Of a stretch of 64,000 nt of DNA, positions 1,287 through 41,329 are shown piece after piece. The stretch is from Candidatus Shapirobacteria bacterium (GTDB lineage: Bacteria > Patescibacteriota > Microgenomatia > UBA12405). Within the stretch, counting starts at the first letter, position 1. Every line of letters starts with the position of its first letter. The notes below the pieces were generated by a model. That model worked only from the letters and a program-made list of their open reading frames with translations, was not told where the DNA came from and did no database searches. A program made the translations under genes and the position numbers. Location of the stretch: the NCBI GenBank assembly GCA_030698565.1, contig JAUYJS010000003.1, forward strand, positions 76,187 through 140,186, in the 5' to 3' direction.

Positions 1287-2405
1287 CTAGCATCGGGTAA
1301 TTAATTTAATTTGACCCAACAAATCATGATTTTGAATCAATTCACCACATCCCCTAATCACACACAAACCAGCTTCATCCGCCACTCGTGTGGTAATTTT
1401 AGTTTCCGCTTCAATTAAGCGGTCTAAGCCTTTGATTTTAGCTCCATTACCCACCAGAATTATTCCTTTTTTCAATATATCATCCATAAGTTCCGGCGGG
1501 GCCTCGTCTAAAACCGCCGATACTAATTTTATAATTTTAGACACATCCATAGATATTGCCTCTCTAATTTCTGCTTCTGTTATTTTTATGCTTTTTGGCA
1601 ATCCCTTCTCCAAATCTCGTCCTCGTATAATAGTTGTTTTACCTTCATTTTTACTATTTTCCCACACATTACCGATTTCAATTTTAATTTTTTCAGCACT
1701 ATTTTGACCGATTAAAAGACCATATTTCATTTTAATATAATTGACAATGCTTAAATCAAACTCAATGCCAGCTACTTTTATTCCCTTACCCACCACCACT
1801 CCTCCCATCGAAATAACACTCACTTCTGTTTTACCTCCACCAATATCTACAACTATTAATCCAGAAGAACTATGAACCGGTAAACCCACACCAACTGCTG
1901 CTAAAACAGCTTCTTCCACCAAAGTCACTTCTCTAGCCCCAGCATTTAAAAAAATTGATTTTACTGCCCTTTTTTGGACTTGATTAATACTACTAGGCAC
2001 TCCCACTATTACTTTTGATTTTAAAATTTTAGGATATTTACTGGGAATTTCTTGAATCAATTTTAAATAATAAGAAATCAAATCTTGCACCGCTTCCAAA
2101 TCAGAAATTATTCCATTTTTAATTGGACTAATAACTTCAATTTGCACTGGTTCTTTATTGAACATTTCTTTGGCCTTGGTACCAAAAGCAATCGGTGTCA
2201 AAATTTTTGATTTAGGTGCCGACAACCCCGTCCACCTCTTTTTTTTCTGTCGCGAGATCATTGACGGTTCATCCACCACCACCCCTTTATCTTTAAGATA
2301 AACCAAAATATTACTACTCCCCAAGTCCACTCCAATGTCCCAACTCAAAAATGAAAGCGCTTTTCTATATTTTTCATTTAACCAAGATGTTTTCATCAAT
2401 TTCAA
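1287..2405 (-). CDS. mreB: Rod-shape-determining actin-like protein MreB
   Basis: 372 aa with DLGSSNILVY (MreB DLGTANT motif), the GGG.TE phosphate loop and overall actin/Hsp70 fold signatures. Confidence 0.9.
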   Translation of the reverse strand: MKLMKTSWLNEKYRKALSFLSWDIGVDLGSSNILVYLKDKGVVVDEPSMISRQKKKRWTGLSAPKSKILTPIAFGTKAKEMFNKEPVQIEVISPIKNGIISDLEAVQDLISYYLKLIQEIPSKYPKILKSKVIVGVPSSINQVQKRAVKSIFLNAGAREVTLVEEAVLAAVGVGLPVHSSSGLIVVDIGGGKTEVSVISMGGVVVGKGIKVAGIEFDLSIVNYIKMKYGLLIGQNSAEKIKIEIGNVWENSKNEGKTTIIRGRDLEKGLPKSIKITEAEIREAISMDVSKIIKLVSAVLDEAPPELMDDILKKGIILVGNGAKIKGLDRLIEAETKITTRVADEAGLCVIRGCGELIQNHDLLGQIKLITRC

Positions 2406-2422
2406 ATTATACTACTACTATG

Positions 2423-4408
2423 AAATCAATTTCTGGAATTATTAAATTTGGCTTTCTATTTTTGTTATTTTTTACGCCCTTAATTTTTACCTCCTTCAAC
2501 TCCGAGCTATTCGAATTGCCCAAAATGTATTTTGTTTATTTAATTACTCTAATTATTCTAACTTTACATTTAATCAATTTTTTTCAAAATAAATCCAAAC
2601 TATTATCCACCAATCTTCTTGTTTTACCTCTTTTTCTTTTTTTACTGTCCCAAGGTATTTCCACATATTTTTCCGTCGACCAGCATACCTCAATTTTTGG
2701 CTATTACTCTCGTCTCAACGGCGGTTTACTTTCACTGATCTCTTATATAATTCTTTTTTTAATTTTAACTGTTTATATCGATAAGCCTTTTATTCAAAAA
2801 ATTATCAATGTTTCCCTTATTTCCGGATTAATCGTTTCTATTTATGCCATTGCCGAACATTTTGGTATCGATAAAGATATTTGGCTTCAAGATGTCCAAA
2901 ACCGAGTCTTCTCCACTTTCGGTCAACCCAACTGGTTAGCCGCTTACCTTTGCATTTTGATTCCCATTGGTTTGGCTCAATCTGTTGAATATTTCTATAA
3001 AAAAAATAAAATTTTATTTTTAATTTATGATCTATCGGCTATCATTTTTTTTCTAGCTTTACTTTTTACAAAATCTAAATCCGGTATTATCGCCGCCATT
3101 ATTTCTCTAGGTTTATTTTTTATTTTAAGTTTTCTCAAAAACAAAAAGTCTCTAAAATTATTAATTCTTAATTCTTCATTATTAATTCTTTTCTCATTAT
3201 CAATCAACAATCCCATCAAAGATCTCCTATTTCCCCAAAAACTAAAGATTGCAGATTCTAAAATTGAAAATTTAAATATTACTCCCTCCGAAGATATCCG
3301 AAAAATTGTCTGGAAAGGAGCCTTAGAACTTTGGCAAAAATTTCCTCTATTTGGTACTGGAGTTGAAACTTTTGCCTATTCCTATTACTGGACCCGACCC
3401 GCCGAGCACAACTTAACTTCCGAATGGGATTTCCTTTACAACAAAGCTCATAACGAATATATTAACTACTTGGCCACCACGGGTGCCCTTGGCTTACTCA
3501 CCTACTCTATTTTCATCGGTGCCATTCTCCTCTTATTTGTTAAAACCATATTAAAAGATAAAGATAATATCTATTTAAATTTAGGTTTATTAACCGCTTT
3601 TATTTCCATTTTAATTACCAATATTGCCGGATTTTCGGTCGTTGTTATATCTCTTTATTTTTTCTTACTTCCAGTATTAATCTCCAAAGATAAATCCAGT
3701 TTTATATTTTCTTTTAATTTCCCTAAATTTATTTCGGCTACCAGTTCTATTGTCATTATAATAGTAGCTTTATTCCTTGGTCAAAAAACTCTTTTCTTTT
3801 ACCTGGCTGACATTACTTATGCCCAAGCTTCTGAATATGACGATCAAAATAAATATAATTTAGCCTATGAACGAATCCAAGAAAGTATTGCCTACAGAAA
3901 TGACGAACCTGTTTATTTAGATAAAGCTTCTTCAGTTACAGCCAAAATGGCTCTTGTCGCTCACAGTCAAAAGAATGACGCCTTAACTCAAAAATATATT
4001 TACGAAACCGAAAATTATTCTAATCAAGCCTTACTTATATCTCCCGCCAATATTAATTTCTGGAAAGAAAGAGCTCAAAGTTATTATTATCTTTCCAGTA
4101 TTGACCCAAAATACTTTCAAAATGCCATAACCGCCCTATCCAAAGCCACAATATTAGCCCCAACAGATGCCAAATCATTTTATTTATTAGGTAAATTTTT
4201 GCAAACAGCCAATCTATCCGACAAAGCCATTCCTTTTTACCAAAAAGCAATTGAACTCAAGTTTAATTACGATTATGCTTATTTTGATTTAGCCAAAATA
4301 TATTTCGATTCTAAAAACTATTCCGAAGCCAAAAAGTATTTTCAAATGGTCTTAAAATATGCTCCTGACAGCCAGGAAAGTAAAGATTATTTAAATAAAA
4401 TTAAGTAA
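2423..4408 (+). CDS. Polytopic membrane protein with an O-antigen ligase (Wzy_C)-like domain and C-terminal TPR repeats
   Basis: Multi-TM N-terminus, then WKGALELWQKFPLFGTGVETF...NKAHNEYINYLATTGALGL (O-antigen ligase/Wzy_C signature), then TPR-like repeats (AIPFYQKAIELKFNYDYAYFDLAKIYF). The start at 2423 is preferred over 2351, which overlaps mreB. Confidence 0.55.
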   Translation, partial: KSISGIIKFGFLFLLFFTPLIFTSFNSELFELPKMYFVYLITLIILTLHLINFFQNKSKLLSTNLLVLPLFLFLLSQGISTYFSVDQHTSIFGYYSRLNGGLLSLISYIILFLILTVYIDKPFIQKIINVSLISGLIVSIYAIAEHFGIDKDIWLQDVQNRVFSTFGQPNWLAAYLCILIPIGLAQSVEYFYKKNKILFLIYDLSAIIFFLALLFTKSKSGIIAAIISLGLFFILSFLKNKKSLKLLILNSSLLILFSLSINNPIKDLLFPQKLKIADSKIENLNITPSEDIRKIVWKGALELWQKFPLFGTGVETFAYSYYWTRPAEHNLTSEWDFLYNKAHNEYINYLATTGALGLLTYSIFIGAILLLFVKTILKDKDNIYLNLGLLTAFISILITNIAGFSVVVISLYFFLLPVLISKDKSSFIFSFNFPKFISATSSIVIIIVALFLGQKTLFFYLADITYAQASEYDDQNKYNLAYERIQESIAYRNDEPVYLDKASSVTAKMALVAHSQKNDALTQKYIYETENYSNQALLISPANINFWKERAQSYYYLSSIDPKYFQNAITALSKATILAPTDAKSFYLLGKFLQTANLSDKAIPFYQKAIELKFNYDYAYFDLAKIYFDSKNYSEAKKYFQMVLKYAPDSQESKDYLNKIK

Positions 4409-6014: not shown

Positions 6015-6083
6015 ATGGCAACAAAGAAAAAAACAGTCAAAAAAGCTAAGAAAAAAACAGTCAAAAAAGCTAAGAAAAAATAA
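6015..6083 (+). CDS. Tiny lysine-rich peptide (22 aa, MATKKKTVKKAKKKTVKKAKKK) encoded by a perfect 24-bp tandem duplication
   Basis: Strong SD and consensus promoter. Contains acagtcaaaaaagctaagaaaaaa twice. Not in the ORF track because it is under 60 aa. Confidence 0.35.
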   Translation: MATKKKTVKKAKKKTVKKAKKK

Positions 6084-7770: not shown

Positions 7771-8910
7771 TTATATACTGTTCGCCTTTTCCCAAACCAA
7801 TTCCAAACTTTTACTATTATTTATCGCCTCTTTTTCAATCGTTTCCTTAAATTTGTCTTTAAATAACGACGGATTTTTAATATATCTTGCTAAAAATTCC
7901 GATGCCAATCCATTCTTTTCCTTAATCCAACCCAATTTTTTCCGTTTAATTAAAACTAAATTACCGTCTTCCTGACCTCCAATATGGGTGATAGCTACAA
8001 ACGGCTTTTCAGTTGCTACTACATCAAACAAAAAATTTGGACCAGCTTTACCAAAAACTATATCGCAAGCAGACAAAACTTCGGCCATATTATCAATCCA
8101 ACCCAAATTTTTAATCACCACCAAGTCATCTTTTCTAAGTTTTTTAAATAATTTAATAAATTCCTGAACCATGTTATAGCCTAATTTGTCAGTACCGGTA
8201 TTGAATACCACCCCAACCTTGTTTTTAACCAACATTAGTATTGGTAAAATACGTGTCAAAGAATTAGTCCCCAAACTACCACCACCTACAAAAATTACTG
8301 GCCGATCATCGTTGAATCCAAGTTTTTTTCTTGATTTTTCTCTGTCATATTTGGTATACATTTCTGGTCTCACCCACCAACCAGTTTTTAAAATTTTATC
8401 GCATTCTATACCATATTTTTGTGCCATTTTTTCAGCCACCTCATCATATACCAAACTTAAATCCGCTCCTTTTACAAAAGTGATCGGATTTACTGTCCAT
8501 GGATCAGCCACAATATTCCACAGTTTAAACTTCTGATTTGTTTTTTCGCGCAATTTAACCAAAGAATGACTATGGAAGAAATAAGCTGAAATTATTAGAT
8601 CTGGCTTAAGTTTTTCTACATTTTTTTTTAATTTTGGTAAATTCATTACAGAAATTTCTTCTACAAATCCTCTTGCTGTTTTGTTCTCAAAAAACCGATG
8701 AGCTATTCTATTGGACGAGGGCATATATCTATATATAAAAGAATATAAATCCCCCGCCAGTCCTATATTTGGCTCAACTTCTTCGTAATAAACTTTGTAG
8801 TTCGATTCTTTTTCTTTGTTTTTAAGATATCCGTACACCGCCTTAGCAATCGACCTATGCCCCCAGGGCATATGATCAGTCAAAACCAAAACTTTTTTCT
8901 TCGGTGTCAT
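7771..8910 (-). CDS. Glycosyltransferase, MGDG-synthase/UgtP/MurG-like (GT28 family)
   Basis: N-terminal LVLTDHMPWGHRS and a C-terminal UDP-sugar binding half (IFVGGGSLG...). Confidence 0.55.
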   Translation of the reverse strand: MTPKKKVLVLTDHMPWGHRSIAKAVYGYLKNKEKESNYKVYYEEVEPNIGLAGDLYSFIYRYMPSSNRIAHRFFENKTARGFVEEISVMNLPKLKKNVEKLKPDLIISAYFFHSHSLVKLREKTNQKFKLWNIVADPWTVNPITFVKGADLSLVYDEVAEKMAQKYGIECDKILKTGWWVRPEMYTKYDREKSRKKLGFNDDRPVIFVGGGSLGTNSLTRILPILMLVKNKVGVVFNTGTDKLGYNMVQEFIKLFKKLRKDDLVVIKNLGWIDNMAEVLSACDIVFGKAGPNFLFDVVATEKPFVAITHIGGQEDGNLVLIKRKKLGWIKEKNGLASEFLARYIKNPSLFKDKFKETIEKEAINNSKSLELVWEKANSI

Positions 8911-23278: not shown

Positions 23279-23354
23279 TGGTGGACCTAAGGGGACTCGA
23301 ACCCCTGACCTTCCCCATGCCATGGGGACGCGCTACCAACTACGCTATAGGCCC
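23279..23354 (-). tRNA. tRNA-Ala (anticodon GGC), copy 1, CCA encoded
   Basis: Reverse complement gggccta...tccccATGGCATgggga...ggggttcgagtcccc-taggtcc-a-cca. G3:U70 Ala identity pair present. Confidence 0.85.
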
Positions 23355-23395
23355 AAATTTTATATGAAAGTTCTTTTTATCAATTTTGCGTAAAT

Positions 23396-24001
23396 TTACA
23401 AAACTTCCCGAGGTAATCTATAAATATAAATTCCTAATCCTGTTGAAACAATCGACATCACAATAAAGATGATTGGATAGCCAAAAAATTGAATTAATAC
23501 TCCACCTATTAAAGCCGCAAAACCTGTTACTATCGCCGCAATTCCTTCCCATCTCCCCCATTCAATAATAGAATTCTCTTTACTGGTGTGACTAGAATAT
23601 ACAGAGTCGAACGCTGGTGTACCAATAGCCGTAGCCACACCCCAAAGAACCTGTGTCAAAATCAGCTGAGGAATATTATTCATCAAAGCATAACTAAAAA
23701 ATACTCCTCCTCTTAAAACATAACCCAAAGCAATCAATAACTCCGGCTCTTTCACCTTTAATTGCCAATTAGAAAATAAAAATATTAAAATACCGCTAAC
23801 CATAGAATATACCGCCCAAGACAATCCAGCAAAAGCAATATTTCCGCCTATCTCTTGAACAAAAACAGCATAAAATGGCGCAAACAAATTCAAAATAAAT
23901 ACCAATATTGAATTAGCTGTGACCAAGATGGTTAAGCTTTTATTAATCCGCGTATGAGGAAAAACAAAACCAAATATCGTTTTTAATTTATTAATTACCA
24001 T
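23396..24001 (-). CDS. Half-size MFS-transporter-like membrane protein (about 200 aa, 6 TM; resembles the C-terminal half of an MFS transporter); possibly a gene fragment
   Basis: Six hydrophobic segments with MFS-like loop motifs. The start at MVINKLK abuts the tRNA-Ala copy 2. The track ORF extends into the tRNA and is trimmed here. Confidence 0.4.
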   Translation of the reverse strand: MVINKLKTIFGFVFPHTRINKSLTILVTANSILVFILNLFAPFYAVFVQEIGGNIAFAGLSWAVYSMVSGILIFLFSNWQLKVKEPELLIALGYVLRGGVFFSYALMNNIPQLILTQVLWGVATAIGTPAFDSVYSSHTSKENSIIEWGRWEGIAAIVTGFAALIGGVLIQFFGYPIIFIVMSIVSTGLGIYIYRLPREVL

Positions 24002-24004
24002 TTG

Positions 24005-24077
24005 TGGACCTAAGGGGACTCGAACCCCTGACCTTCCCCATGCCATGGGGACGCGCTACCAACTACGCTATAGGCCC
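24005..24077 (-). tRNA. tRNA-Ala (anticodon GGC), copy 2, identical to copy 1 over 73 nt but without encoded CCA
   Basis: Same 73-nt sequence as 23282-23354. The 3' flank reads ACAAAT instead of ACCAAAT. Confidence 0.8.
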
Positions 24078-25837: not shown

Positions 25838-25863
25838 CAAACTTAATAAGTTATTATAAATAT

Positions 25864-25902
25864 ATCCTATAACTTGACATTATTATATAAATTTTATATA
25901 AT
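25864..25902 (+). promoter_or_regulatory. Promoter repeat copy 1: ATCCTATAAC-TTGACA-17 nt-TATAAT
   Basis: TTGACA at 25874-25879 and TATAAT at 25897-25902 with exact 17-nt spacing. The upstream ATCCTATAAC block is shared with copies at 26725, 26916 and 26985. Confidence 0.6.
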
Positions 25903-26637: not shown

Positions 26638-26724
26638 TTTCCCACCGGAACCAAAGGAGCGTCGAAGTTCTACTTCGACCTCCTTCCCTTTCGGGGGAAA
26701 ATCTTCAAAGTTTACGGTGTACAT

Positions 26725-26763
26725 ATCCTATAACTTGACATTATTAAACATTACTGTTACACT
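26725..26763 (+). promoter_or_regulatory. Promoter repeat copy 2 (ATCCTATAAC-TTGACA-17-TACACT)
   Basis: TTGACA 26735-26740. A -10-like TACACT at 26758-26763. Confidence 0.45.
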
Positions 26764-26915: not shown

Positions 26916-27023
26916 ATCCTATAACGACTGACATTATTAATTAAATTCCTTCATCCAGCTCTGGTTTGCAAATTGTGTTTTGTTATCCTATAACTTGATT
27001 TTTTTACCATTTAATGCTATAAA
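26916..27023 (+). promoter_or_regulatory. Promoter repeat copies 3 (degenerate: ATCCTATAACGACTGACATTATTA) and 4 (ATCCTATAAC-TTGATT-17-TATAAA)
   Basis: Copy 4: TTGATT 26995-27000 and TATAAA 27018-27023 with 17-nt spacing. Confidence 0.45.
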
Positions 27024-34595: not shown

Positions 34596-35153
34596 GTGAA
34601 ATTAAAGCCCCATCATCATAAATATAAAAATTTAATTTTATTAGCACTTGGTATTATTGTCGCCCTAATTTTATTTAAAAATTCTGCCTTCCATAATTTT
34701 CTTTTAAGCCTTGGTAACTACGGTTATATCAGCGCTTTTATCGCCGGTGCGCTGTATGCTTCCACTTTTACAGTACCTATTGGTGCTATTATTCTTATTA
34801 CTCTAGCCAAAACCCTATCCCCAATTGAACTAATTATTATCGCACTTTTTGGTTCTGTAATTTTTGATGTCACGGTTTTTAAATTAGTCAAACACAAAAT
34901 TTCGGATGAAATTTCCCACATATACAATAATCCAAAATTTGATCATCACTTTAAAAAAATATTACATACCAAATACTTTGCCTGGACTTTACCCTTAATT
35001 GGTATTTTTATGATCATTTCCCCGCTTCCCGACGAATTGGCCATCGGCTTAATGGGTCTAGCCAAAATTCATGGTCTGGAATTTCTATTAATCTCCGCCG
35101 TTTCTCACGCCATTGGTCTTTCTCTCATCATCTCCGCCTCAAATTTGATTTAG
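34596..35153 (+). CDS. Small polytopic membrane protein, paralog A of the 37042..37608 gene
   Basis: 185 aa with 4-5 TM segments. Clearly homologous to the 188-aa product at 37042..37608 (shared KYKNL, GAFIAG, STFTV, LSPIE, SPLPDEL blocks). Confidence 0.5.
   Translation: MKLKPHHHKYKNLILLALGIIVALILFKNSAFHNFLLSLGNYGYISAFIAGALYASTFTVPIGAIILITLAKTLSPIELIIIALFGSVIFDVTVFKLVKHKISDEISHIYNNPKFDHHFKKILHTKYFAWTLPLIGIFMIISPLPDELAIGLMGLAKIHGLEFLLISAVSHAIGLSLIISASNLI
35122..35146 (+). repeat. Direct repeat DR1 (ctctcatcatctccgcctcaaattt): the 3' end of paralog A
   Basis: An identical 25-mer recurs at 36496-36520. The flanks are also similar (Gatttag vs Tatttaa). Confidence 0.7.
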
Positions 35154-35163
35154 ACCATGTTTT

Positions 35164-35898
35164 TTAGGTCAGTTTGGCAATTTCATTATTCAAAAACATT
35201 ATAGTTTCTTCTTTTAAGGTTTTTCTAATTTTACTAAAAGTTTCAGTTGGCAAAAGAGTATTTAAGTCCTGATCAATTAATGTTTGATTAATTTTTTGTT
35301 TGATAAAATCACAAAGATAAATAAGGTATTCTTTAGTTTGTGTTCCTGTTCTTTCAATTATTACTTGTTCATTATATTTTAAATTTTTTAAGAAAAAATA
35401 ATGAATATCGTAGATATCTCGACCAGCAATTGATTTTTTACGGTCATAGCGATCTTTAACAGCCACCAGTTTATTTGCAAAGATACTTTCTTGGCTTTGA
35501 CAATTAACTGTCCGATTAATTTCCGGCAAAAACACCGGTACATAAACATTTGACTTTACAATAAAATTAAGGGCATCAATTTTTAAAGTGTTTCTTTCAT
35601 TTAGTAAATTAGAATATTTAAGAAAAAATTCTAGGGCTTTTTGACTTTCTTGTTGTAAATTAAATCCAAGTTTGTCAAAAATTTTATGAAATTCAAGTCT
35701 TAACTCTTTTTCGTCTACTCCAGTTTTAAGGTCAAAATCAAGATCAACAGAAAATCTATTAAGGATTCCCATCATTGAAGCGCAAGTGCCACCTTTGAAA
35801 AATAAAGAATTAGACAAAAGAGGGTTGTCTACGATTTCAGTTAAGGTTCTAAGTAAATAAGCTTTGTGAATAGCGTCTGCTGGTTTAACTATAATCAT
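35164..35898 (-). CDS. AbiEii/AbiGii-family nucleotidyltransferase toxin (type IV TA/abortive infection)
   Basis: FFKGGTCASMMG motif and the overall AbiEii family pattern. Its start overlaps the upstream partner by 4 nt. Confidence 0.65.
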   Translation of the reverse strand: MIIVKPADAIHKAYLLRTLTEIVDNPLLSNSLFFKGGTCASMMGILNRFSVDLDFDLKTGVDEKELRLEFHKIFDKLGFNLQQESQKALEFFLKYSNLLNERNTLKIDALNFIVKSNVYVPVFLPEINRTVNCQSQESIFANKLVAVKDRYDRKKSIAGRDIYDIHYFFLKNLKYNEQVIIERTGTQTKEYLIYLCDFIKQKINQTLIDQDLNTLLPTETFSKIRKTLKEETIMFLNNEIAKLT

Positions 35899-36437
35899 AG
35901 ATAGTTGATTTCTTTTTGATAACTTTTAACTAAATCCCAATCAATGATACTATCAGCATCAAAATGATAACTTGGTTGAAAATATAACATGTCGGCAATT
36001 GCCCGCTCAATAGTGGCAATAAAAACACCTTTATCATTTTGAATAATTCCGACACTATTGTTAAGACATTGAGGTTTTAATTGTCTTACTAAATAGGAGA
36101 CTTCATTAATATTAAAATTAGCAGGAGAACTAGAAACAAAAGTGATTTTAGTGGGAGATTGATTGATTATCCCATTTTTAGACAAAATCGATTCTGTACT
36201 TAGATAACTAAATTGATTTATGGCTCTAAAGCCAATTTCTATCGGATCCAATTGATCTAGAGGAACGATGCTGTAAAAACCTTTCTGGATACTAATCAAA
36301 ACCTTTTTTTTAATAAACCTGGCAATAGTTTTATAAAGTGTATTTTGATTTGAAATATTCCAAAGAACTTTCAGGTCTGAGGTATGAAATAACCTTTGTG
36401 CTTGTTGGATTAAAATACCAATTTTATCTTTAGTCAT
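35895..36437 (-). CDS. AbiEi-family antitoxin/transcriptional regulator (partner of AbiEii)
   Basis: 180 aa immediately upstream of and translationally coupled to the AbiEii-like gene. N-terminal wHTH-like region. Confidence 0.55.
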   Translation of the reverse strand: MTKDKIGILIQQAQRLFHTSDLKVLWNISNQNTLYKTIARFIKKKVLISIQKGFYSIVPLDQLDPIEIGFRAINQFSYLSTESILSKNGIINQSPTKITFVSSSPANFNINEVSYLVRQLKPQCLNNSVGIIQNDKGVFIATIERAIADMLYFQPSYHFDADSIIDWDLVKSYQKEINYL

Positions 36438-36495
36438 AGTTATATTATCTAGTACTAATATGTACAGGATAACACAACCATTGTGCTTGTCAAGC

Positions 36496-36520
36496 AGCTG
36501 TCAAACTCTCATCATCTCCG
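36496..36520 (+). repeat. Direct repeat DR2: a duplicated 3' end of the membrane-protein gene, encoding ...SLIISASNFI*
   Basis: Identical to 35122-35146. Behaves like a remnant or target duplication flanking the AbiE cassette. Confidence 0.7.
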
Positions 36521-36549
36521 CCTCAAATTTTATTTAAAAAAAACACCTC

Positions 36550-37020
36550 CTAATAATTCAACGGCGGTCGCATTTTTTTACCCGAATATTTCAACTTCAT
36601 ACCGATAACCTCATCGTAAATTTCCCGAACTTCTTTTTTTATCACTTCAATATCGACACCTTTTGATCGCAAATTTTCCAAAACATATTCCATTGACTTA
36701 GCATAATCATTTTTAAATTTTTTGTTTATATCTTGCCAAACAATTCCTTTTAGTGGGGACAATAAATTTTCGCTAAATAATAATCTTTTGGTCAACATCA
36801 AAAAGGCAATCATCGGATAACTAACCGCACCAGTAAAATAAGCCGTATTATCATTTGAAATGATATCTCTTGTTTCCGGATCATATTTTATATCGTAAAT
36901 TTTGTCCCTCATCGACGAAAAACATTTAGCGTGATTATCATCTTCCAATTTAATTCTTGAATCGGCCATAGCCGTCAATGCTTCATAAACTTTTGAAATA
37001 TGTGGTTTTTTCCAGATCAC
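36550..37020 (-). CDS. Hypothetical protein (156 aa)
   Basis: ORF only. Confidence 0.3.
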   Translation of the reverse strand: MIWKKPHISKVYEALTAMADSRIKLEDDNHAKCFSSMRDKIYDIKYDPETRDIISNDNTAYFTGAVSYPMIAFLMLTKRLLFSENLLSPLKGIVWQDINKKFKNDYAKSMEYVLENLRSKGVDIEVIKKEVREIYDEVIGMKLKYSGKKMRPPLNY

Positions 37021-37041
37021 TAGCTAATATATTACCAGATA

Positions 37042-37608
37042 CTAGGGTTTAATGATTACCGATGCCGATACTATTAAAAATAAGCCGATAGAATTTAAAA
37101 CATAAGACAAAACAATAAATTTGAACGTGCTTAATTTTGACATCCCCATTAGACTAACACCTAGCTCATCGGGCAACGGCGAGGCAATAATAACCGCCCC
37201 TATCACAGGCAACATCCAATTAAAATAATTTGAATGAAACAGTTTTTTGAGATGCCTTTTTTTATCTAAATGCTTATATATATCATTTATTTCCTTGGCC
37301 AAATTGTCTTTGATAAAATGAAATATGAGCACATCTCCGACGACCGCTCCCAAACCAGCAATCAAACCAATTTCTATAGGCGACAGGGTTTCTGCCAAAG
37401 TCAGTAAAACCAAAACACTTGTGGCAACAGTAAAGGTAGACACAAAAAATATACCTGCAATAAAAGCACCAAGATACCCCAAACCATTTAAATGTAAAAG
37501 AAAAGTATGAAACGCTTCAATTTGGGACAGAACAATAGCTAAAATTATTCCCAAAAAAACAACAGTAAGATTTTTATATTTCCACTGATGACCTAATCCA
37601 CCACTCAT
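37042..37608 (-). CDS. Small polytopic membrane protein, paralog B (inverted relative to paralog A)
   Basis: See paralog A. Confidence 0.5.
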   Translation of the reverse strand: MSGGLGHQWKYKNLTVVFLGIILAIVLSQIEAFHTFLLHLNGLGYLGAFIAGIFFVSTFTVATSVLVLLTLAETLSPIEIGLIAGLGAVVGDVLIFHFIKDNLAKEINDIYKHLDKKRHLKKLFHSNYFNWMLPVIGAVIIASPLPDELGVSLMGMSKLSTFKFIVLSYVLNSIGLFLIVSASVIIKP

Positions 37609-39805: not shown

Positions 39806-39844
39806 AATTTATTCTATCTGAAATTCATAGATACTTACAATTAT

Positions 39845-41245
39845 TTATTTATCGCTAAATTCAAATCTGGCACCTGCTAATTGTTTTACTATTTTGTGAG
39901 TTAGATCCTTATTTTCTCCACTAAAAACCATTTGAGACGCCAAAGGCCATTTATTATTGACCACATCCATAACCCCGCTCCATTTATTTTTTACCAAACC
40001 AATACCTAACATCTTTAAGGCTCGTTTGTCATCTATTTCTCCTAATTTACGTTTCCCAGATACTTCCTTATATGCAACCAATAATTCACTAGCCTGATAT
40101 TGCAAATGGAATATTTCATTTTTAAAAGCCTCTAGTACCTCGGTTCTATATTCATTGACCAAATCAACATTCACACCCACTTCTTTCATTTTCTGCACAA
40201 TCTGAGCCACTTGGTCTGTTAATTGTTGATGTTCATCATTAACTGCTGAAACTATGTCAGTATTATTTTCTGGATCAATCCCCATATATTGAAAGTCTCC
40301 GCGTTTAAATTCAAAAAACCGATAGTTTATACCAAAACTTAAACCACTCGCATCCTCAAAACATTTGATTACATCCGGACTTACAGTCTTTATTTTATGA
40401 TAAATATCACCCCGCCTATCCATTGATTTCAATTCTTCTTCTTTTGGATAGAAACTTGTCTGAACCGTTTGTGGATGTCTTTCCACAATCTGCTTCATTT
40501 CCAATCCAACAATTTTTAATAAGGTTGGTGGTAAACCAAACATAGAACCTCTCTCTCCAAAAACAAAAAATCCACCTTCACTGACCATTACACAATTCTC
40601 GGCTGTAATTTCTTCCCTCACTTTTGGAATTACTATTTTGTAACGACCCTCTTCATCAGGCTTTGGCGCTAACGGGTCTGTCGCCATCTCATCCCTAACT
40701 TTTTGTTCTAAACTCATCATTATCCATTCATCACCATACTTGCTTTGTAAATATAATTCTTCTTCCGTAATATCTACATCGGCTCCTGTGGGAGCGTATA
40801 TATGTAAAACATCAACCGCCTCAAACCCGAAAGCTTTTAAATCAACTTGTCGAGCGTCCCGATATAATCTTGTTATTCGCCTCTCCTTACCATCCAACTC
40901 AAAAGTAATTTCTCTTTTTCTTTCTTCTGCAAAAATTTCTGTTTTTGTTTGAATACCGACTGATTGTAATTTTTCCTCAAGATTTCCGGCCCACTGCTCA
41001 TCAGGATCAACAGCGATAAGATGATCCGCATCATAAGCATATAAAACTCTGAGCATATCCTCACCACTTGCTGGATAATAAATAGTACTGTGACGACCAT
41101 TTTTAGTTGCTTCTCTTATACTGGAAATATTTTGGGCCACCCAATCTTTCTTTTCCACATCAACATCTTTACCTGCTACTAAATCAACTACAAGCTGTAA
41201 ATCAGATAAAACTGTTTCTTTATTACTAGTATTTTCTCTTTCCAT
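39845..41245 (-). CDS. Hypothetical cytoplasmic protein (466 aa)
   Basis: ORF only. Acidic, with no clear motif. Confidence 0.35.
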   Translation of the reverse strand: MERENTSNKETVLSDLQLVVDLVAGKDVDVEKKDWVAQNISSIREATKNGRHSTIYYPASGEDMLRVLYAYDADHLIAVDPDEQWAGNLEEKLQSVGIQTKTEIFAEERKREITFELDGKERRITRLYRDARQVDLKAFGFEAVDVLHIYAPTGADVDITEEELYLQSKYGDEWIMMSLEQKVRDEMATDPLAPKPDEEGRYKIVIPKVREEITAENCVMVSEGGFFVFGERGSMFGLPPTLLKIVGLEMKQIVERHPQTVQTSFYPKEEELKSMDRRGDIYHKIKTVSPDVIKCFEDASGLSFGINYRFFEFKRGDFQYMGIDPENNTDIVSAVNDEHQQLTDQVAQIVQKMKEVGVNVDLVNEYRTEVLEAFKNEIFHLQYQASELLVAYKEVSGKRKLGEIDDKRALKMLGIGLVKNKWSGVMDVVNNKWPLASQMVFSGENKDLTHKIVKQLAGARFEFSDK

Positions 41246-41329
41246 TAATTCATAATACTAAATTTATATACACTTATTCAATTTGTCGTAAATGTTTGCT
41301 TTTTTTTCTAGTTTTTCGTAAGCTATGTT

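Follow-up and report, generated by a model that had tools for sequence, protein, structure and literature searches.

An AbiE toxin–antitoxin operon flanked by a duplicated gene end in a Candidatus Shapirobacteria genome: probable insertion with long target duplication, and recurrence of such repeats around related modules

Introduction

Characterised AbiE systems, together with MenAT of M. tuberculosis, are bicistronic toxin–antitoxin (TA) operons with a 4-nt gene overlap, a nucleotidyltransferase of the DUF1814 family carrying motifs I-IV, an AbiEi-family partner and an inverted-repeat promoter (PMC3985639; PMC7450476; 10.64898/2026.01.19.700257). The gene overlap and the inverted-repeat promoter were described for the S. 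agalactiae system, and that the nucleotidyltransferase motifs are needed for toxicity came from mutagenesis of the protein of that species (Dy 2014, PMC3985639). Here we have analysed a 64-kb window, by which we mean the whole stretch of DNA studied, from a Candidatus Shapirobacteria metagenome-assembled genome (MAG). The window carries an AbiE operon directly behind a membrane-protein gene, which we call gene A, and the 3' end of gene A is present a second time on the far side of the operon (locus proteins NCBI MDP4009523-27, on a contig of 186,566 bp). The first-pass annotation of this DNA labelled the pair type IV. That is the classical name, and a 2026 preprint argues instead for type VII, with an antitoxin-induced autophosphorylation of the toxin (10.64898/2026.01.19.700257). 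As AbiE has already been reported as a common defence family in groundwater MAGs, its presence in this genome is probably not surprising: it was found in more than 10% of the bacterial MAGs, in a source that, in the part considered here, also discusses the defensome of the candidate phyla radiation (CPR) and gives no AbiE frequency for CPR.

How TA cassettes without mobility genes move has long been unclear. Restriction–modification (R-M) systems offer a precedent in the "insertion with long target duplication", in which a unit lacking other mobile genes is flanked by a duplication of variable length, more than 30 bp, that in some cases overlaps the 3' end of a gene. Such flanking repeats are significantly enriched around R-M genes compared with other genes, the insertions are found mostly in naturally competent species, and the mechanism was left unresolved (PMC2853133). 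In the literature that we searched, we found no report of a long-target-duplication insertion of TA or AbiE modules.

Compared with characterised AbiE and MenAT, the pair in the window shares the operon features listed above but is distantly related in sequence. Its putative operator is a single palindrome with 11-nt arms and a 6-nt spacer, whereas characterised AbiE has a pair of 23-bp repeats, IR1 and IR2, and its host is a CPR bacterium (Ca. Shapirobacteria). The resemblance to the R-M insertions (Nobusato et al. 2000, Gene 259:99; PMC2853133) lies in a small addictive unit without mobility genes, a variable duplication of more than 30 bp of unique host sequence that is sometimes a gene 3' end, and enriched flanking repeats. 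The differences are that the cargo is a TA pair, that the hosts include CPR bacteria, and that an empty site is available only for a neighbouring cassette in a sister strain (locus L008) and not for the window's own event. Short orphaned ends of conserved genes are also left downstream of type VI secretion system (T6SS) effector–immunity, Rhs and contact-dependent inhibition (CDI) loci, where arrays are possible, as at our locus L080 (Kirchberger et al. 2017, PMC5361080). In those loci the displaced piece is part of a variable toxin that receives an incoming C-terminus, whereas in our case the cargo and the gene beside it are unrelated, and sequence of that gene is merely duplicated. Finally, integrase-less att-flanked elements (CIMEs), integron cassettes and pdif modules are likewise small, repeat-bounded, cargo-only units, some with TA genes, but they use a conserved site and a dedicated recombinase, while the repeats described here are different host sequences in each context.

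Results

The 25-mer CTCTCATCATCTCCGCCTCAAATTT occurs exactly twice in the window, at 35122-35146 in the end of gene A and at 36506-36530 beyond the AbiE pair, and a second copy appeared in 0 of 100 dinucleotide shuffles of the window. The first-pass annotation had noted this exact repeat; its sequence was right and the position given for the second copy, 36496-36520, was 10 nt too low. The repeat also reaches further than the 25 nt recognised at that time, to 31 nt with 30 identical (35122-35152 against 36506-36536). The two copies run into separate stop codons, TAG for A and TAA for the orphan, and the second copy reads in frame as ...TLIISASNFI*, the orphan 3' gene end that had been claimed. 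The orphan is on the strand of A and has its sequence, and the copies diverge only at their extreme ends (TTGATTTAG versus TTTATTTAA). Since the repeats start 11 nt past the -35 box of the operon and 10 nt past its final stop codon, they belong to the host and not to the element. Between them, 1,353 nt are taken up by abiEi, abiEii and their promoter; the module ends have no terminal inverted repeats, and Pfam and PADLOC profile scans of the insert found no transposase or integrase. We consider it likely that the AbiE operon came in by horizontal transfer and was placed behind the stop codon of A by an insertion with long target duplication.

The left junction, from A to abiEii, is also present in two independent Logan assemblies (L001 and L002). 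At position 2 of the repeat both window copies have T, where the related loci L007/L010 and L008 have C. Against the reconstructed ancestral end of A, TTTGATTTAA, each copy carries one change, G to T in the orphan and TAA to TAG in the intact copy. As the two copies share the T and have one change each relative to the ancestor, the comparison, with its few informative sites, favours a duplication inside the lineage of the window followed by slight divergence.

Profile hidden Markov model (HMM) searches, suggested by the first-pass annotation as a check on its AbiEi/AbiEii assignment, agree with that assignment. AbiEii matches Pfam PF08843 with 66.8 bits (cut-off 22.5; E 3.6e-18) and 21 PADLOC AbiEii models, the best at E 2.5e-24, and AbiEi matches the PADLOC AbiEi model at E 7.6e-25 over residues 3-172, nearly its full length. 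Two results for AbiEi pull the other way: its match to NCBIfam TAA_AbiEi (E 6.4e-14, 52 bits) lies under the equivalog cut-off of 150, and it has no Pfam match even at E <= 10. We assign the 180-aa partner, on these profile scores, as a member of the AbiEi family and not as an equivalog. Comparison with the PDB by sequence gave marginal matches only, the best at E about 0.02. The motifs of AbiEii are found as KGG-x14-DLD (residues 35-56), KLVAVKDR (143-150) and RDIYD (160-164); motif III has Val at a position described as aromatic, and motifs I and II stand 2 residues closer together than they do in S. agalactiae. The translational coupling proposed for the two genes is reflected in their 4-nt overlap, where they share ATGA.

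Directly upstream of abiEi is the best sigma-70-like site of the region, TTGACA-16-TG-TATCCT, with the -35 TTGACA at 36493-36488 and the TG-extended -10 TATCCT at 36471-36466. The -10 box is overlapped by an imperfect palindrome, TTATCCTGTAC-N6-GTACTAGATAA (36472-36445), in which 9 of 11 arm positions pair when scored by a script and which is kept in nine relatives with 7-10 of the 11 positions matching. An exact inverted-repeat search of the promoter at seed 6 returned none, the palindrome being imperfect. Because of the HMM matches, the 4-nt overlap, the nucleotidyltransferase motifs and the palindrome overlapping the promoter, the cassette is identified as an AbiEi/AbiEii operon in anatomy, with its activity predicted.

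The boundaries of the cassette were seen by comparison with relatives. A scan of JGI metagenome contigs for AbiEii relatives gave 80 loci, the 18 closest of which were aligned to the window. These AbiE relatives are 72-85% identical to the window in nucleotide sequence and lie in at least eight unrelated flanking contexts, such as 74 nt downstream of tRNA-Glu (L009) or in the gap between a thiolase gene and a membrane-protein gene (L018/L025). In the 18 closest loci, homology starts at the -35 box (window 36494 or 36478-36493) and stops at the abiEii stop codon or within a few codons of it (35158-35180), and the sequence past either end is unrelated between contexts. The final 3-8 codons of AbiEii vary by context; the junctions therefore lie inside a dispensable gene tail. 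Judged by these alignments, the cassette is foreign and horizontally acquired, with a minimal unit of about 1.33 kb from -35 box to stop codon. No AbiEii relatives were found on plasmids or in IMG/VR viral contigs, and phage records gave one match, at 32% identity. The GC skew of the cassette (35200-36400) is about 0, while that of its minus-strand neighbours is -0.3 to -0.45.

The flanking duplication is recurrent. All 58 loci with sufficient sequence on both sides, which represent 41 distinct AbiE contexts, were compared with 124 control segments of the same geometry, 36 from the same loci and 88 from across the window. Direct repeats flank the module in 11 of the 41 contexts at a score reached by none of the 124 controls (Fisher p = 7e-8), and for two further contexts, L018/L025 and L032, gapped alignment or comparison at the protein level gives support. 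Repeat lengths range from 31 to 147 nt and identities from 76 to 97%, the sequence is different in every context, and the repeats usually abut the module, their distance being 0-30 nt to the -35 box and -24 to +50 nt to the stop codon. The association of this AbiE lineage with long target duplications is thus recurrent and statistically supported.

In many cases the repeat is the terminus of a gene. It is the 3' end of ndk in L051 and the last 140 nt of a gene for an HI0933-like flavoprotein in L076, where a 12-nt match, GACAATGAAATC, between the host gene and the 3' end of abiEii lies at the junction. In L054-56 and L062 it is the 3' end of a DUF4143 ATPase gene, and the host stop codon of L062 falls within the CTTGACA of the module. 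At the other end of a gene, the repeat in L025/L018 is the first ~30 codons of the membrane-protein gene. Two repeat-positive loci are ambiguous, L043 with an array of TATCTCC-like motifs and L072 with an AT-rich repeat of 20-31 nt. Integration linked to a tRNA was considered for L009, which has downstream a fragment weakly like a tRNA 3' end (65% by eye), and was rejected, the fragment being not significant in the repeat tests.

Some of these loci have further features of their own. Compared with L025, L018 has at 2029-3309 an extra gene, UDP-glucose-dehydrogenase-like by eye, between the thiolase gene and the orphan 5' end of the membrane-protein gene, which it truncates. In L080 (499-4860) two different AbiE modules stand in tandem after a PPDK_N-domain gene with the same orphan C-terminal fragment (...KVLKDGDLVEVDA...) behind each, and a third copy of the fragment is found 3.3 kb further on, at 8102-8139. 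The position after a second ndk gene is occupied by AbiE in L051 (3177-4800) and by a YafQ-like toxin with a 91-aa partner in the Roizmanbacteria-like L098-L101 (about 3594-4177 in L098), whereas L102 has neither system. This position is another TA-prone slot at a gene 3' end. No clean empty site was found for the ndk insertion of L051; its relatives carry the YafQ-like TA pair or other DNA.

In sister strains, other genes are found where the window has AbiE. In L008, a contig of 42 kb that came from a different sample, nucleotide identity to the window is 94.4% across the 6 kb that end at 35155 and resumes at 36539, and the space between A and the UCP014422-family gene is taken by an unrelated gene of 361 aa, while L007 and L010, whose A has 94% protein identity, have a 102/113-aa gene at this point. 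All three cargos are on the minus strand, starting within a few bases of the stop codon of A, and on the right, conserved sequence starts at about TTTAAAAA(C)CACCTCCTAATAATTC. No match in Pfam, PADLOC or NCBIfam was obtained for the alternative cargos (113 aa, 361 aa) or for a 75-aa gene of L008 described below. As sister strains with about 94% nucleotide identity in the flanks carry unrelated genes there, the region after gene A is, on these alignments, a strain-variable slot. The homologue of A and the SIMPL gene converge in related genera, either directly or with one DNA-glycosylase gene between them (L091, 4001-5271; L092, 4001-5939), and the UCP014422 gene, paralog B and the Nramp transporter gene of the window, which are absent there, are lineage-specific additions. 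The whole interval from A to SIMPL is therefore plastic, and paralog B belongs to the variable material and is not a partner of the repeat.

The 75-aa gene of L008 lies between the UCP014422 gene and B (L008 7601-8141) and is flanked by a 52-nt repeat of 90% identity, with a 41-nt core containing 2 mismatches; the duplicated sequence is the start codon of the UCP014422 gene together with its first 14 codons. Window 36977-37028 aligns to both copies, and for this reason the window provides the empty site of the event. Further along the alignment with L008, the space between the SIMPL and Band_7 genes, about 70 nt in L008, holds at window 39818-41327 a gene of 466 aa for which Pfam gave no match and which L008 lacks.

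The features of the locus are listed in Table 1. The open reading frames that we found agree with the coordinates of all five genes in the first-pass annotation, which had also called A and B homologous; they are 49% identical over 180 aa (E 8e-59). Both have weak VTT/DedA-like Pfam matches, that of A to VTT_dom (22.7 bits) being under the cut-off, and A has tmk/SHMT as neighbours, kept in relatives. The cassette had been described as inserted between inverted paralogs: the genes are placed as stated, but its true neighbours are A and the UCP014422-family gene, and the paralogs are incidental.

Table 1. Features of the AbiE locus, in window positions
Feature	Coordinates	Strand	Description
Paralog A	34596..35153	+	185-aa membrane protein; intact target gene, 3' end duplicated
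Direct-repeat copy 1	35122..35152	+	Final 31 nt of paralog A; stop TAG at 35151-35153
Junction spacer, 10 nt	35154..35163	.	Separates stop of A from stop of abiEii
abiEii	35164..35898	-	244-aa DUF1814 nucleotidyltransferase, predicted toxin
abiEi	35895..36437	-	180-aa predicted antitoxin and autorepressor; 4-nt overlap (ATGA) with abiEii
abiE promoter and putative operator	36445..36494	-	-35, extended -10, imperfect palindrome
Junction spacer, 11 nt	36495..36505	.	Separates module from orphan repeat
Direct-repeat copy 2	36506..36537	+	Orphan 3' end of A (...LIISASNFI*), own TAA stop; native downstream sequence next
UCP014422 (PF27709) family gene	36550..37020	-	156 aa; right-hand flank of the slot, outside the insertion
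Paralog B	37042..37608	-	188 aa; within the lineage-specific A-to-SIMPL interval, no role in the repeat

Three other sets of repeats were observed in the window. At 23279-24077, two tRNA-Ala(ggc) genes, an 81-nt direct repeat of 98% identity, flank a gene for an MFS-like half-transporter of 202-216 aa that starts immediately beside the upstream tRNA copy; this unit may be a further long-duplication cassette, with a whole tRNA gene duplicated, or the remnant of a tRNA-targeted integration. Three copies of 23-36 nt containing TATCCTATAACTTGACATTATTA (25863-25898, 26724-26759 and 26984-27019) are intergenic and upstream of plus-strand genes, and they may be a shared promoter or operator. A 24-nt unit, AAGAAAAAAACAGTCAAAAAAGCT, is perfectly duplicated in tandem at 6024-6071.

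Discussion

We have shown that an AbiE operon follows gene A in the window as a discrete module and that host sequence is duplicated around it and around many of its relatives. The first-pass annotation had suggested an insertion that duplicated its target, and such an event fits the discrete module, the other cargo in sister strains and the recurring duplications of host sequence around relatives. We argue that the acquired operon, from -35 box to abiEii stop codon, would have entered directly behind the stop codon of A and that the last 31-33 nt of A would have been copied on its entry. One copy would complete an intact A, and the other would remain as the orphan end beyond the cassette, beside the original downstream sequence of A. 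The joining, we infer, would be illegitimate, assisted by microhomology and tied to replication or repair, with the two host junctions "crossed" at 30-150 nt from one another, so that the second junction lies behind the first and the interval is duplicated.

Two filters could then act on the products. In such gene-dense genomes, with intergenic spacers of 10-20 nt, only events that restore the interrupted gene end would survive, and deletion through the repeats would be counter-selected for an addictive cargo, unlike for ordinary inserts. As for the cargo itself, AbiEi would bind the promoter palindrome, repress the operon and neutralise AbiEii, while AbiEii would arrest growth as a DUF1814 nucleotidyltransferase. 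The pair would stabilise the locus and possibly abort phage infection.

Several observations weigh against an insertion with target duplication. The right junction is supported by a single assembly, that of the window itself. No repeat was found in 28 of the 41 contexts, and the scar is not obligatory. The sharp module ends could mark a defined end of the element or just the limit of functional constraint after long divergence. The empty site proposed by the first-pass annotation was not found in searches that used the identical protein of paralog A together with its cluster at 90%, one genome per species, and the UCP014422 homologues with their surroundings: the three relatives known at strain level are all occupied (3/3), and more distant relatives in this search have a different gene order. 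The junction expected there is ...TCAAATTTGATTTA(A/G) joined straight to AAAAAACACCTCCTAATAATTC, with the 31 nt present once. In L007/L010 and L008, a short imperfect similarity of about 9-15 nt is found at the point equivalent to the orphan. These similarities may be chance matches or decayed orphans and, if they are real remnants, the duplication could predate the AbiE cargo, which would have come in by a later swap through flanking homology. Lastly, the 1.5-kb insertion at 39818-41327 relative to L008, in a roomy intergenic region, has no flanking direct repeat.

The main rival, which we regard as unlikely, is a C-terminal displacement by homology-facilitated illegitimate recombination (HFIR), in which donor DNA with A and AbiE would recombine within or upstream of A and be joined illegitimately 31 nt before the resident stop codon, so that the intact end of A would be the donor allele and the orphan the resident one. 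Orphaned gene 3' ends are a known outcome of such events at T6SS and Rhs loci (PMC5361080), and in the window the copies differ just at their extreme ends, the TAA of the orphan matches the alleles of sister strains and the flanks, at 94% nucleotide identity, are conserved enough to serve as an anchor. However, both copies have the base that is specific to the lineage of the window and absent from the sister alleles, and for the 75-aa cassette of L008 it is the orphan, and not the intact copy, that diverges more from the empty-site allele. Displacement would also need a donor that already holds AbiE directly after A, leaving the first insertion unexplained, and canonical HFIR gives an insertion with deletion, a duplication being the product of a single crossover of a circle (PMC3240628).

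Less probable still is a CIME-like or integron-like cassette between att sites, mobilised in trans by a site-specific recombinase, with the 31-nt repeats as attL and attR. It is true that direct repeats regenerating a gene end are typical of integrase-mediated insertion, that a tRNA gene lies a short way upstream of one relative (L009), and that three different cargos stand at exactly the same point after the stop codon of A. But the repeats are entirely different in each context, from 31 to 147 nt, and the lack of a shared core among them excludes a single att site. The repeat-bounded unit has no space for a recombinase, its ends lack inverted repeats and any attC-like element, the neighbouring genes that were scanned include no integrase, and searches of plasmids, phages and viral contigs gave no relatives. 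By inspection only, no dif/Xer-like or attC-like arm structure was seen in the repeat. A classical transposon is likewise excluded, because there are no terminal inverted repeats and no transposase and the length of the duplication is not fixed (31-147 nt).

A chance match, an assembly artefact or, as the first-pass annotation had offered for the paralogs, recombination between A and B is very improbable as the origin of the repeat: the right junction is found in one assembly only and the MAG represents a population in which strains vary at this very locus, yet none of the shuffles gave a second copy, the imperfect copies (30/31, with different stop codons) are ill-suited to a k-mer loop, two other assemblies contain the same left junction, the scar recurs in 11-13 independent contexts from many assemblies against 0/124 controls, and the orphan matches A in strand and sequence whereas the 3' end of B differs and B has no visible part.

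The AbiE system of the window is itself ordinary and belongs to a known family; what the locus adds is the recurrent scar. Taken together, this locus and 40 related contexts reveal one AbiE lineage moving as a minimal promoter-to-stop unit, and in about a quarter to a third of the contexts it is flanked by long duplications of unique host sequence, often restoring a gene end, which is the same unexplained scar as that of R-M systems. For annotation, short orphan gene ends could flag insertion scars, and the region downstream of A is a strain-variable slot in Shapirobacteria. The long flanking duplication also provides a sequence signature that can be searched for and reproduced experimentally.

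It is conceivable, though we hold this only tentatively and think it more doubtful than the insertion at this locus, that two-gene addiction modules in general, AbiE and R-M alike, share a recombinase-independent route of chromosomal entry that duplicates 30-150 nt of the target. The repeats would then be enriched either because the modules promote the event or because post-segregational killing blocks deletion through the repeats. If this link is general, it would point to a common route of insertion or retention for addictive gene pairs and, if true, would explain how TA cassettes spread in genomes with few classical mobile elements, such as those of CPR bacteria.

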